From: Eledone cirrhosa
Lineage: Eukaryota
Assembly (NCBI GenBank): GCA_964016885.1
Contig: OZ024747.1
Location: 46,934,001-46,998,000 of the forward strand
Reading direction: 5' to 3'
DNA length: 64,000 nucleotides
Positions 6,216 to 61,684 of the stretch are shown in pieces (the stretch's first letter is position 1; every line of letters begins with the position of its first letter). The position numbers were made by a program, and so were the translations under genes. The notes below the pieces were generated by a model. The model saw only the letters and a list, made by a program, of their open reading frames with translations. It was not told where the DNA came from and ran no database searches.

Positions 6216-7467
6216 CCCGACCAGTCTCCAGTCACAATGATACAAAAAAAAACTGTAGGTTTAATTGTCAGAAAGTTACCAATGTTTCCTTACATAATAT
6301 TACTATTGATTAGTAGATCATCATAGACATTTTTTTAATAAGGTGCAAAGTTATTTACAGTTCGATTAATACATGTGAATGAATATACACAAAAATACAC
6401 ATGTCGAAAGACGTACAGAAGTGTCACCCAGAGATTCTTTATTTTGTTATGGGCGCACAGGAATTATACCAGCATAGCGGTTCCCCGCTTTGTTGTGCAA
6501 ACTGGCATCATCTTAATGAACGAAATTGCACGCCAATGTTGTGGTTGTTGAAATAAAGATGCAACTGTCAATTTGTCGTATGGTATTTATATATATAATG
6601 ATAATGCATGCCCTTTTTCAATAAACTGATATATATATATATATATATATATATATATATACATACATATATACATTTTTGTATATGCTTTTACGAAGTA
6701 TTCTTTTGTTTACATGTAAAATATATGAATGTATGTGCGCTCTATGTATATGTGCATGTGTGTGCGTATGTACTGGATGAAGTAATCATATATATATGCC
6801 TACAAACCGTCATATATATATATATATACACACACACACATATATATATATATATATATATATATATATATATATATATATATATATATATATATATATA
6901 TAATATATATTTATATATATATACGTATATATATATATATGCTATTTAGAAAAAAAAAAACGGTGTGTGTTGGTGTTTTGGGTAGAAGACGTTTGAGAAA
7001 GAGATTTGCATATCTTAATATTTATCTAAAACCTATGAATTATTCAGGATAATCTCACCATATTTCAAAACATTCCTGACCTTCACTTCAGTTGTTCCCC
7101 TCTATTTTGGGGACGATGTTGGCAGTTTTCTACCAACTGGTTGGACAGTATCATCCTTCCTACTACTCTTTTACTACTACTACTACTACTACTACTACTA
7201 CTACTACTACTACTACTACTACTACTACATTTTCTTCGTTTTGCTTGACCTTATACTCCCACTGTGTCATGTTGGATAAATATGAAGTGTATAGGAACAT
7301 TTCTTATTACAATATGATATATATATATATACATTTATACATACCTATATATATATATATATATATATATATATATATTATGATATATATATATATATAT
7401 ATATATATATATATATATATATATATATATATATATATATATATATATATATATAGGAACGAGTAGG

Positions 7468-7563
7468 ACCCCGACGGCTGAGCTCAAGCCGTTTCGACGG
7501 CTAATTCAGGACTAAATGAAAATTTTTATCCTGGTATTTGAATAGCCGAGCTTCTCAAGGGGT
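7468..7563 (-). ncRNA. Type I hammerhead ribozyme, U3-A8 covariant core
   Basis: acccc-TTGAGAA-long stem II (cggct/agccg, attca/tgaat)-GAAA-cggct tgagctc agccg-TC-ggggt; GUC cleavage triplet. Confidence 0.7.
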
Positions 7564-8269
7564 AATTCCATATATGGAAAAAGTGATTGTCACAAGGATT
7601 GGTCAAAAGTTTGTTGTTGAGACATAATAATTCTATCATTGCAATTTGTGGAGGGAAGGGGTAGCTGAACCTGCCATTAGGAGAAAGAGGGAGAGGGGGT
7701 GGAGGAGCCCCAGTCATGCTTTGATAGTGCCGACTACAGCTGGGGGAGGGGGAGGAAGTCGAAACAATAAGGGGTAAATATATAGAAAAATACCGAGAGT
7801 GTTAAAAAGCAATTAAATGTAAAAAAAATAAACATTTTCTGGTTACTACGACCTACGGACAGCTATCAAGTCTCTCACTGGTACTGCTAGGCTAAAGAAA
7901 TGTTTACTAGGTGGGACGGAATTATAATGAGACCCTTTTAAGAGTCAACAAGTGTCAACAAGTGAGGGTCAACAAGTGAGGGGCCAAAATACTAAAGAAA
8001 CTACCACGAAATAATAAATAAAGGTTTCTACCCCAGGCACAAGGCCAGCAACCACCCAGTGCAAAAAAATAAACTAAAACGAAATAATAATTCAGAATCC
8101 CGAAAAAGAATACTAATACTATCTCTAAGGGTGCCGCCACGATACAAAAATTCTAGTGCAAACTACATAAATGCTCGTACGAAATATATGTAAAATTTGA
8201 TACGGAAAATTAATTCAGAATCCCCCCCCCCCCCCAAAAAAAAATTAAATAAATACCATATATGGAATT

Positions 8270-8364
8270 ACCCCTTGAGAAGCTCGGCTATTCAAATACC
8301 AGGATAAACATTTTCATTTAGTCCTGATTTGCCCTCGAAACGGCTTGAGCTCAGTCATCGCGGT
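8270..8364 (+). ncRNA. Hammerhead (family M, U3-A8 core), stems partly decayed
   Basis: acccc-TTGAGAA...GAAA-cggct...agtca-TC-gcggt. Confidence 0.5.
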
Positions 8365-57610: not shown

Positions 57611-58054
57611 GTGATATATATATATATATATATATATATATATATATATATATATATATATATATATATATATATTTATATATATATATATATATGGAAG
57701 CAAGTAATAGCTGTATATATATATATATATATATATATATATATATATATATATATATATATATATATATATATATTTATATATATATATATTTATATAT
57801 ATATATATTTATATATATATATATTTATATATATATTTATATATATATTTATATATATATATATTTATATATATATATATATATTTATATATATATATAT
57901 ATATATATATATATATATATATATATTTATATATATATATATATATATATATATATTTATATATATATATATATTTATATATATATATATTTATATATAT
58001 ATATATTTATATATATTTATATTTATATATATATATATATATATATATTTATAT

Positions 58055-61000
58055 AGACATAGAATATTCGAAAATATTCTGTATGTTTATAATAAACATT
58101 TTGAAGACCTAATCGCTATAAAATAGAATACGTCACGTATTACAATTAGATTCTCGATAAAAGCAAGGGAAGTAATCTACGCGTTTCATTCTCGTTAGAA
58201 ATCATCAGGACTACATATCCAGTGCTTTTATCGAGAATGACACAGCTAGAGACTTATAGAATACTTAGCTGTGTACAGGAACTGGTTTGAAAGAGCGGTT
58301 GCCGGTCCGGCAGAAATTAGAAATTGGAATAAATGCTCTGAAATAGCGATATATATGTGAATATAGACATAGAATATTCGAAAATATTCTGTATGTTTAT
58401 AATAAACATTTTGAAGACCTAATCGCTATAGAATAGAATACGTCACGTATTACAATTAGATTCTCGATAAAAGCAAGGGAAGTAATCTACGCGTTTCATT
58501 CTCGTTAGAAATCATCAGGACTACATATCCAGTGCTTTTATCGAGAATGACACAGCTAGAGACTTATAGAATACTTAGCTGTGTACAGGAACTGGTTTGA
58601 AAGAGCGGTTGCCGGTCCGGCAGAAATTAGAAATTGGAATAAATGCTCTGAAATAGCGATATATATGTGAATATAGACATAGAATATTCGAAAATATTCT
58701 GTATGTTTATAATAAACATTTTGAAGACCTAATCGCTATAGAATAGAATACGTCACGTATTACAATTAGATTCTCGATAAAAGCAAGGGAAGTAATCTAC
58801 GCGTTTCATTCTCGTTAGAAATCATCAGGACTACATATCCAGTGCTTTTATCGAGAATGACACAGCTAGAGACTTATAGAATACTTAGCTGTGTACAGGA
58901 ACTGGTTTGAAAGAGCGGTTGCCGGTCCGGCAGAAATTAGAAATTGGAATAAATGCTCTGAAATAGCGATATATATGTGAATATAGACATAGAATATTCG
59001 AAAATATTCTGTATGTTTATAATAAACATTTTGAAGACCTAATCGCTATAGAATAGAATACGTCACGTATTACAAAATACGTGACGTATTCTATTCTATA
59101 GCGATTAGGTCTTCAAAATGTTTATTATAAACATACAGAATATTTTCGAATATTCTATGTCTATATTCACATATATATCGCTATTTCAGAGCATTTATTC
59201 CAATTTCTAATTTCTGCCGGACCGGCAACCGCTCTTTCAAACCAGTTCCTGTACACAGCTAAGTATTCTATAAGTCTCTAGCTGTGTCATTCTCGATAAA
59301 AGCACTGGATATGTAGTCCTGATGATTTCTAACGAGAATGAAACGCGTAGATTACTTCCCTTGCTTTTATCGAGAATCTAATTGTAATACGTGACGTATT
59401 CTATTCTATAGCGATTAGGTCTTCAAAATGTTTATTATAAACATACAGAATATTTTCGAATATTCTATGTCTATATTCACATATATATCGCTATTTCAGA
59501 GCATTTATTCCAATTTCTAATTTCTGCCGGACCGGCAACCGCTCTTTCAAACCAGTTCCTGTACACAGCTAAGTATTCTATAAGTCTCTAGCTGTGTCAT
59601 TCTCGATAAAAGCACTGGATATGTAGTCCTGATGATTTCTAACGAGAATGAAACGCGTAGATTACTTCCCTTGCTTTTATCGAGAATCTAATTGTAATAC
59701 GTGACGTATTCTATTCTATAGCGATTAGGTCTTCAAAATGTTTATTATAAACATACAGAATATTTTCGAATATTCTATGTCTATATTCACATATATATCG
59801 CTATTTCAGAGCATTTATTCCAATTTCTAATTTCTGCCGGACCGGCAACCGCTCTTTCAAACCAGTTCCTGTACACAGCTAAGTATTCTATAAGTCTCTA
59901 GCTGTGTCATTCTCGATAAAAGCACTGGATATGTAGTCCTGATGATTTCTAACGAGAATGAAACGCGTAGATTACTTCCCTTGCTTTTATCGAGAATCTA
60001 ATTGTAATACGTGACGTATTCTATTCTATAGCGATTAGGTCTTCAAAATGTTTATTATAAACATACAGAATATTTTCGAATATTCTATGTCTATATTCAC
60101 ATATATATCGCTATTTCAGAGCATTTATTCCAATTTCTAATTTCTGCCGGACCGGCAACCGCTCTTTCAAACCAGTTCCTGTACACAGCTAAGTATTCTA
60201 TAAGTCTCTAGCTGTGTCATTCTCGATAAAAGCACTGGATATGTAGTCCTGATGATTTCTAACGAGAATGAAACGCGTAGATTACTTCCCTTGCTTTTAT
60301 CGAGAATCTAATTGTAATACGTGACGTATTCTATTCTATAGCGATTAGGTCTTCAAAATGTTTATTATAAACATACAGAATATTTTCGAATATTCTATGT
60401 CTATATTCACATATATATCGCTATTTCAGAGCATTTATTCCAATTTCTAATTTCTGCCGGACCGGCAACCGCTCTTTCAAACCAGTTCCTGTACACAGCT
60501 AAGTATTCTATAAGTCTCTAGCTGTGTCATTCTCGATAAAAGCACTGGATATGTAGTCCTGATGATTTCTAACGAGAATGAAACGCGTAGATTACTTCCC
60601 TTGCTTTTATCGAGAATCTAATTGTAATACGTGACGTATTCTATTCTATAGCGATTAGGTCTTCAAAATGTTTATTATAAACATACAGAATATTTTCGAA
60701 TATTCTATGTCTATATTCACATATATATCGCTATTTCAGAGCATTTATTCCAATTTCTAATTTCTGCCGGACCGGCAACCGCTCTTTCAAACCAGTTCCT
60801 GTACACAGCTAAGTATTCTATAAGTCTCTAGCTGTGTCATTCTCGATAAAAGCACTGGATATGTAGTCCTGATGATTTCTAACGAGAATGAAACGCGTAG
60901 ATTACTTCCCTTGCTTTTATCGAGAATCTAATTGTAATACGTGACGTATTCTATTCTATAGCGATTAGGTCTTCAAAATGTTTATTATAAACATACAGAA

Positions 61001-61684
61001 TATTTTCGAATATTCTATGTCTATATTCACATATATATCGCTATTTCAGAGCATTTATTCCAATTTCTAATTTCTGCCGGACCGGCAACCGCTCTTTCAA
61101 ACCAGTTCCTGTACACAGCTAAGTATTCTATAAGTCTCTAGCTGTGTCATTCTCGATAAAAGCACTGGATATGTAGTCCTGATGATTTCTAACGAGAATG
61201 AAACGCGTAGATTACTTCCCTTGCTTTTATCGAGAATCTAATTGTAATACGTGACGTATTCTATTCTATAGCGATTAGGTCTTCAAAATGTTTATTATAA
61301 ACATACAGAATATTTTCGAATATTCTATGTCTATATTCACATATATATCGCTATTTCAGAGCATTTATTCCAATTTCTAATTTCTGCCGGACCGGCAACC
61401 GCTCTTTCAAACCAGTTCCTGTACACAGCTAAGTATTCTATAAGTCTCTAGCTGTGTCATTCTCGATAAAAGCACTGGATATGTAGTCCTGATGATTTCT
61501 AACGAGAATGAAACGCGTAGATTACTTCCCTTGCTTTTATCGAGAATCTAATTGTAATACGTGACGTATTCTATTCTATAGCGATTAGGTCTTCAAAATG
61601 TTTATTATAAACATACAGAATATTTTCGAATATTCTATGTCTATATTCACATATATATCGCTATTTCAGAGCATTTATTCCAAT
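58055..61684. repeat. 310-bp hammerhead-containing tandem array (non-LTR retrozyme-like) with an inversion at 59075/59076
   Basis: ~3.3 units on - (58055-59075) and ~8.4 units on + (59076-61684); units essentially identical; flanked by (TA)n. Confidence 0.92.
59313..59355 (+). ncRNA. Array hammerhead, first of 8 plus-strand copies (every 310 bp to 61483-61525); minus-strand copies at 58172-58214, 58482-58524 and 58792-58834
   Basis: gtagtc-CTGATGA-t ttct aacg agaa t-GAAA-cgcg-TA-gattac; GUA triplet; enclosed by tctcgataaaagca/tgcttttatcgaga. Confidence 0.88.

Follow-up and report, generated by a model that had tools for sequence, protein, structure and literature searches.

We analyzed a 64,000-nt stretch of the Eledone cirrhosa genome (contig OZ024747.1, positions 46,934,001 to 46,998,000; hereafter the window) that carries hammerhead ribozyme motifs at very high density. 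The motifs are real, and the bulk of them are of a known kind, i.e., minimal motifs at the 3' ends of Penelope-like elements (PLEs). The newest feature, absent from an earlier note on this DNA, is the non-circular order of some motifs: in a family that we call K, the cleavage-site block (S) is followed by the GAAA block (G) and then by the CUGANGA block (C). We consider it probable that the window is a pile of 5'-truncated PLE 3' ends and non-coding passengers in TA microsatellites, mostly bearing minimal type I hammerheads, with K in S-G-C order predicted to self-cleave and likely derived from Naiad elements.

Results

Type I motifs were sought with a scanner for the core CUGANGA..GAAA..UH with stems I to III in C-G-S order, which allowed at most one core mismatch and tolerated a short palindromic stem III as well as a U·U or bulged start of stem II. 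In the window it found 32 matches, 28 with a perfect core and 11 belonging to a 310-bp array, whereas 20 block-wise dinucleotide shuffles averaged 0.1 and never exceeded 1. Reversed or complemented, the window gave at most one match with an earlier scanner version. The comparison with shuffled sequence had been set beforehand as the refuting test, and the motifs clearly withstood it. One further type I motif with a 62-nt stem II (57479, plus strand) is additional to the 32 matches. By hand, 44 dispersed loci were tallied, including the long-stem motif, copies recruited by homology and permuted motifs; they comprise 18 intact type I motifs, two family-fixed variant cores, two intact S-G-C motifs, six with one defect and 16 decayed or half motifs. 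Intact motifs thus total 33 (22 dispersed, 11 in the array), or about 55 with decayed copies, and the roughly 44 motifs of the earlier note (33 dispersed plus 11 in the array) lie between the two values. Its more than 10 families became more than 15, and clustering of the motifs gave 29 clusters with at least two members. The window is 68% AT with 238 TA runs; within hand-drawn bounds, hammerhead modules occupy about 40% of the non-microsatellite bases in 7455–61684, or 35% without the array.

Covariation, whose absence from family alignments would have spoken against the earlier note, was seen in family K, with double changes in many of its pairs (see below). Stem I pairs were formed to 73% in 55 core-recruited motifs, 17 of which were mis-registered by the fixed 4-nt stem III of this test, in comparison with 51% for shuffled partners (maximum 59% in 500 shuffles). 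A U·U at 10.1-11.1 occurred in 43 of 55 short-stem motifs. Rfam gave no match in the window at gathering thresholds and no hammerhead family among the best 150 of 577 weak matches, and a strict hammerhead descriptor returned no motif in the window because it demanded longer stems. Apparent type III hammerheads were rejected as reverse transcriptase (RT) coding sequence, and one motif cluster, a false family derived from a short interspersed element (SINE), was removed from the tally.

Family K is represented by cores at 30146, 18400 and 44474, in which GAAA lies upstream of CUGANGA instead of downstream. The K1 unit (29543–30208, plus strand) consists of a 614-bp non-coding unit and a 52-bp direct repeat between TA tracts; its S-G-C hammerhead spans 30056–30157, with GAAA at 30119–30122, CUGAUGA at 30146–30152 and the predicted cut at 30102/30103. 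The K2 copy (18302–18431, plus) has a damaged GAAA, and the K3 hammerhead (44463–44564, minus) would be cut after 44518. Patterns made of the K G and C blocks matched the genome 11,151 and 3,950 times (15,101 in total; controls 0), and an S-G-C pattern with another stem III gave 217 matches versus 9 in the control. Among 1,738 K1 candidates, the 39 highest-ranking other copies share 99% identity with the query over its 171 nt. Truncated, tandem and inverted K1 copies occur, with ends at TA, and many of the truncated ones are TA-flanked on both sides. K tandems have a spacing of 470–760 bp and up to nine units; at G000:C1:43918169-43924210, nine units of a K subfamily follow each other in tandem every 750 bp or so. 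Copies of K3 were also noted on contigs C5, C6, C8, C9 and C10 near the contig ends, in an apparently duplicated subtelomeric block. None of the RNA datasets was listed with K, and the contigs of three runs hold K-type DNA only.

For the K fold, we retained 33 of 77 distinct sequences, those whose 5' part was intact, and took no more than four from any subfamily; leaving out five near-duplicate or rearranged ones and adding the three window copies and one from locus L125 gave 32 rows. Across these 32 copies, pairing in the 35-pair model reaches 91.6%, and 18 of the pairs show double changes. None of 500 shuffles reached it on four of five measures, and partners slid out of register paired at only 31–45%. 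Double changes fall in 5/7 pairs of stem I, 5/6 pairs of the helix by which stems I and II interact and 4/6 pairs of a 5' hairpin; pair 10.1-11.1 covaries too, being Watson-Crick in 70 of 78 distinct copies (U-A 35, A-U 21, G-C 14). The cleavage site reads UA or UC in 71 of these 78 copies and UG in none, and the S block was absent from the pattern that had recruited them. Stem I forms at least five of six pairs in 72 of the 78. A four-way junction results: the partner of the G-block strand is a 5' segment, without covariation, and that of the C-block tail is the far 5' end, where one pair covaries. The minimum free energy fold of K3 recovers the nested helices, and other S-G-C families have a different paired sequence at stem III. 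A type II hammerhead was rejected as a description of K, since the hairpin that would serve as its stem I lacks conservation across subfamilies. The S-G-C hammerhead of K is predicted to self-cleave.

A link between S-G-C modules and Naiad elements appeared on two sides. Naiads were described by Craig et al. (2021) as PLEs that prefer (TA)n and lack canonical hammerheads, with a "half core" in eight cases (PMC8557442; here and for the papers cited below, statements refer to the excerpts of the source that we drew on). Read by eye, Naiad_Ovul and the preceding entry in the supplement of that work have a terminal S-G-C motif that shares the split stem II of K and has a 5' hairpin like that of K, and further passages around core words, most of whose headers are not visible, contain five S-G-C and six C-S-G arrangements with complementary stems (PMC8557442). 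In the E. cirrhosa genome, 84 Naiad candidates contained no intact open reading frame (ORF), all matches being decayed. At 10 of 24 decayed Naiad loci an S-G-C module forms the end, downstream of the ORF remnant and on the same strand (profile search, E <0.05), and five of these ten modules have a UUGANAA core. The profile was built from seven S-G-C copies of a family other than K, and its background was two matches in 934 kb of samples and window. One of the two is a Naiad 3' untranslated region remnant in the window (25690–26360, minus), which retains the S and C blocks (UUGAAAA core) with the G block deleted and is 66–74% identical over about 500–680 nt to the 3' regions of the Naiad remnants L256, L299, L302 and L314. 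Scanned directly for S-G-C, 20 Naiad loci yielded six matches, compared with one to eight in shuffles; the decayed modules surfaced only by the profile search. Because of the shared architecture, K likely derives from Naiad elements.

To assess genome-wide extent, we sampled the 3.0-Gb genome in 87 evenly spaced 10-kb stretches (870 kb). The sample contained 122 type I motifs (88 with a perfect core; 21 in one array locus) and two in its shuffles, from which about 250,000–420,000 motifs extrapolate to the genome. Exact patterns occurred in 7 and 3 copies where whole-genome counts predicted 13.8 and 4.4, and a rarer one in 2 where 0.6 was predicted; the sample is hence not inflated. A single pattern for families A and D matched the genome 47,485 times (control 0). 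Axolotl, with 126,247, is the highest published count that we came across (PMC7229834), and hammerheads at the density seen here extend a known phenomenon beyond its previous range. Dispersed motifs are about three times as dense in the window as in the sample on average, so that the window is not the special ecosystem of the earlier note and rather stands roughly threefold above a genome-wide background. One sampled stretch, L137 (G000:C28:110000001-110010000), held 21 motif matches in 10 kb, mostly of family B.

Motifs are tied to TA tracts. In 73 of 92 sample motifs (the array locus and edge matches excluded), a TA tract lies within 250 nt downstream of the cleavage site, compared with a mean of 28% (maximum 40% of 200) for random positions in the same loci and 13% of 54 SINE controls. 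In the window, 20 of 21 dispersed scanner matches have a TA tract within 330 nt downstream. The distance from motif to TA is fixed per family, e.g., 126–128, 50 or 21–25 nt, with two modes in some. Enrichment next to (TA)n, proposed earlier as a check, is thereby borne out. (TA)n is the preferred Naiad target (PMC8557442), and in the anole PLE PAc reverse transcription starts at fixed internal sites (PMC11167929); we infer that the family-specific TA distances fit such a fixed start.

Several families are also tied to PLE coding sequence. The hammerhead of family A follows an RT/GIY-YIG ORF, of up to 715 aa in locus L133, at a distance of 875–1019 nt; that of family H lies 205–221 nt behind an endonuclease related to the 1023-aa RT/endonuclease ORF of locus L249; and at 7 of 12 family J loci an endonuclease precedes the motif by about 1.2 kb. 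That 1023-aa ORF was rejected as a partner of K or of other S-G-C modules, as it belongs to another element, and for most small families, as for K, no upstream RT/GIY-YIG ORF was found. PLE protein matches occurred in 30 of the 87 genome samples. Further PLE clades were seen at L070, L127, L028, L103 and L249, some with a zinc-finger-like linker before the endonuclease. Together with the TA adjacency, these links support the earlier proposal that several PLE lineages insert into TA tracts. The modules show the anatomy of PLEs, namely 5' truncation, partial tandems (pseudo-long terminal repeats, pLTRs) and inverted 5' copies; the fold-back and tandem arrangement described before was found as six head-to-head fold-backs in the window, the 310-bp array and the K tandems. 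Since A, H and J sit behind PLE ORFs, many modules that look non-coding are 5'-truncated 3' ends of coding PLEs rather than retrozymes. Non-coding tandem units, in line with the earlier note, are represented by the array and K.

Two elements in the window retain coding remnants. The first, a 5'-truncated Penelope/Poseidon-type PLE with an inverted 5' copy (16041–18204, minus; family A hammerheads at 16223 minus and 18108 plus), includes at 17099–17944 (minus) an RT C-terminus, linker and GIY-YIG remnant with 68% identity to the 715-aa ORF (E 1e-73). Its PF01541 match (E 0.0018) is below the cut-off, and 58,416 first-look candidates were found in the genome. The second, also 5'-truncated with an inverted copy (33794–34755, minus; family H hammerheads at 33991 minus and 34558 plus), contains an endonuclease C-terminus at 34213–34335 (minus; profile iE 1.5e-9). 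These two of the three GIY-YIG remnants claimed earlier stood; the third (57370–57450) fell, as neither tblastn nor two profiles built from the PLEs of this genome found GIY-YIG there.

The 310-bp retrozyme-like array (58039–61684) has TA tracts on both sides and consists of 3.3 minus and 8.4 plus copies with three and eight type I hammerheads, respectively; unit matches are 99–100% (TRF). The unit has 35% GC, a longest stop-free frame of 59 aa and a monomer fold z-score of −3.9. As judged from its sequence, the array has the traits of a non-LTR retrozyme, i.e., tandem units within 150–450 bp, GC below 50%, no ORF and a type I motif in each. An array-family relative with one core change (31506) lies at 31476–31568 (plus).

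The remaining hammerhead families are scattered along the window. A family J fold-back module (7456–8456) has a type I motif with a U3-A8 core at about 7466–7562 (minus) and a decayed inverted copy at 8254–8389 (plus); half copies lie at 9960–10082 and 27409–27462. U3-A8 is a known PLE hammerhead variant (PMC4209133). Family J (window 7453–7588) has 2,118 genome matches, and by hand count A8 occurred in 100 of 100 among the matches listed, with U3 in 63 and C3 in 37. A C3-A8 mismatch subfamily hence coexists with U3-A8, and no G8 was seen among the matches listed. Family A forms fold-backs at 10585–11184 (hammerheads 10966, minus, with one core change, and 11091, plus) and 38119–38533 (38216, minus, and 38345, plus), and convergent family B copies span 30548–31265 (30629, plus, and 31251, minus), with others at 42858 (minus) and, deleted, at 30485. 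Minimal type I motifs of family G were found at 21035–21210 (minus; hammerhead 21155), with further copies at 24413–24500 and 32624–32698 (decayed), and a family I type I motif at 22340–22548 (minus; 22460), with copies at 52602 and 53903 (plus). These copies fall into a 640-bp direct duplication of 94% identity (52081–52721 and 53397–54022). Family N (33241–33527) has a fixed CAGAAGA core at 33462 (plus) and a half copy on the minus strand; A stands at position 4 in the copies listed (window 33432–33533), and 11 matches in 870 kb suggest tens of thousands of copies. Type I motifs of families E (43888–44018; 43918), F (45062–45156; 45094) and D (46315–46491; 46386) are all on the plus strand, with a second D copy at 56931 (minus). 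The long-stem motif mentioned above (57472–57566) belongs to a family M module (57099–57613, plus).

Apart from these, a fold-back junction at 21428–21525 lies inside a hammerhead stem II and leaves one half motif per strand, and an inverted pair at 50468–50887 belongs to a family whose stem II region of about 85 nt exceeds the limit of the scanner. TA-bounded fold-backs at 13564–13984, 44680–44953, 51090–51289 and 62250–62900 have no recognizable hammerhead and are probably truncated-PLE tails. About 15 SINE copies (e.g., 11696–12065, 18573–19090, 25180–25382) are often (ATT)n-ended, in one case form a 370-bp fold-back, and show no TA bias. A non-LTR RT-like remnant without a hammerhead lies at 55200–56600 (minus), and a remnant at 35800–36260 (minus) resembles what we take to be the C-terminal endonuclease of a site-specific non-LTR retrotransposon.

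Discussion

In the mechanism that we propose, a PLE RT/GIY-YIG protein would nick AT-rich DNA, and reverse transcription would start at a fixed site 3' of the hammerhead, leaving the family-specific TA distance. Early termination and template switching would then produce truncations and inverted 5' copies. With a short palindromic stem III, type I motifs would cleave as dimers or with the help of protein. In K, stem I, stem III and the interaction helix would cross as pseudoknots, and stem II would consist of one core-closing pair plus the four-way junction formed with the 5' segment. K would cut tandem transcripts to unit-length RNAs, which an active PLE could copy in trans.

Several observations weigh against a self-cleaving, Naiad-derived K. 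Stem II is split so that only pair 10.1-11.1 joins the C and G blocks, unlike in validated SGC ribozymes. Stem III, between S and G, is 92.7% paired yet nearly invariant, and the helix TCGC/GCGA lacks covariation, its GCG being part of the recruiting pattern. The fifth measure of the K model, further pair types, was matched by 366 of 500 shuffles, fold z-scores are weak (−1.3 for K1, −1.9 for K3), and K copies are related, so that the individual counts are not independent events. Pairing reaches 81% in a second, old S-G-C family, whose covariation does not exceed that of shuffles. No ORF was found upstream of K or other S-G-C families in the loci read, and the Naiad link of K rests on its architecture and on a different S-G-C family, K itself standing beside no ORF. 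All Naiad ORF matches are decayed although K1 is young. Finally, the PAc hammerhead of anole needed protein and was dispensable for insertion in vitro (PMC11167929).

Part of this evidence would suit a K that keeps its hammerhead-shaped fold as a protein-binding or reverse-transcription signal without cleavage. The one-pair core stem II and the weak fold energy would be expected, PLE hammerheads cleave poorly in vitro (PMC4209133), cleavage is dispensable for PAc insertion (PMC11167929), and families J and N spread with a C3-A8 mismatch (37 of 100 among the matches listed) and an A at position 4, respectively. We nevertheless regard a mere signal as unlikely, for the rule of U followed by anything except G holds in 71 of 78 copies without having been selected, 10.1-11.1 covaries in three pair types, and five of ten Naiad remnants contain the compensatory U3-A8 core. 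Still more doubtful is a K that cleaves only in trans or across tandem units, as a circularly permuted hammerhead assembled from two copies and without a pseudoknot in a single molecule. Although the tandems would permit this and PLE hammerheads function in dimeric form (PMC4209133, PMC6765202), a single unit contains all partner strands within 102 nt, together with the short S-to-G linker of validated SGC ribozymes, and covariation is seen in the interaction helix.

The elements might also create or lengthen TA tracts, beyond mere targeting. Motif count rises with TA content (rho 0.62), a correlation that fits targeting equally well, and TA lies mainly 3' of the motif (83% versus 45% on the 5' side; 112 matches). 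On the other hand, many truncated K copies have TA on both sides, as expected after insertion into an existing tract, and (TA)n is the published preferred target of Naiads (PMC8557442), so that we give TA creation only a minor chance. Finally, the false SINE family, the RT coding sequence mimicking type III hammerheads and the empty Rfam search could be taken as signs of chance matches in AT-rich repeat DNA; the near-zero shuffled and reversed-pattern controls and the 29 motif clusters refute this for the bulk of the motifs and make it extremely improbable.

We hence retain the reading of truncated PLE ends and passengers in TA tracts, with a K that would cleave itself. In a wider sense, we lean on balance toward the view that Naiad PLEs across animals carry non-circularly permuted hammerheads (S-G-C with split stem II, and C-S-G) and that a non-coding retrozyme of Naiad type, with more than 15,000 active-type copies, is still spreading in this genome. 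This would be their first chromosomal and eukaryotic occurrence, in what may be the largest hammerhead complement counted. In the open-access literature we found no report of permuted hammerheads in PLEs, or of S-G-C with a split stem II in an animal retroelement. If our view is correct, it explains why Naiads seemed to be without hammerheads, since descriptors assumed circular permutations and a continuous stem II. Non-circular ribozyme permutations, so far a matter of anonymous RNAs in metatranscriptomes, would gain a place in animal chromosomes, and studies of structure and function could draw on thousands of naturally occurring variants of a new hammerhead with a four-way junction. Standard tools such as Rfam, moreover, overlook ribozyme-bearing DNA, which in TA-rich regions such as the window accounts for about one third of the sequence outside microsatellites.

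Most motifs of the window resemble the minimal type I hammerheads in PLE pLTRs (Cervera & de la Pena 2014, PMC4209133). Common to both are the short palindromic stem III, an extra base after A9, the U3-A8 variant, many families per genome, mostly single truncated copies and opposite-strand pairs 100–700 bp apart. In contrast to the pLTR motifs as described there, U·U at 10.1-11.1 is common here, and 2,000–9,000 copies per genome stand against 47,485 by one pattern and the extrapolated total given above. Like animal non-LTR retrozymes (PMC7229834; Li et al. 2026, 10.64898/2026.07.22.740005), the array consists of low-GC, ORF-less tandem units with a type I hammerhead and would share their PLE origin; it differs in being inverted and TA-bounded, and K units differ in carrying an S-G-C motif. 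With Naiad PLEs (PMC8557442), K and the window share the (TA)n target, tandem and inverted insertions and a 3' untranslated region motif annotated there as "HHR_half_core". In cephalopods only decayed Naiad ORFs were described in that text, as in this genome; K differs in that it has no ORF and that K1 is young. The S-G-C order itself was named by Eckert et al. (2023), who validated it in vitro (PMC10085705). Type-SGC ribozymes and K have in common the order of blocks, a short linker between stems I and II, an extra I-II helix and a covarying stem I. In the excerpts of that report, type SGC comes only from metatranscriptomes and from none of the genomes of known organisms, whereas K is chromosomal with more than 15,000 copies. 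Stem II is continuous in type SGC and split in K, with the G-block strand on the 5' segment. Since K lacks a continuous stem II and shows the SGC block order with conserved core and UH site as well as the covarying stem I and I-II helix, we predict that it works like SGC and represents a new architectural variant of it.

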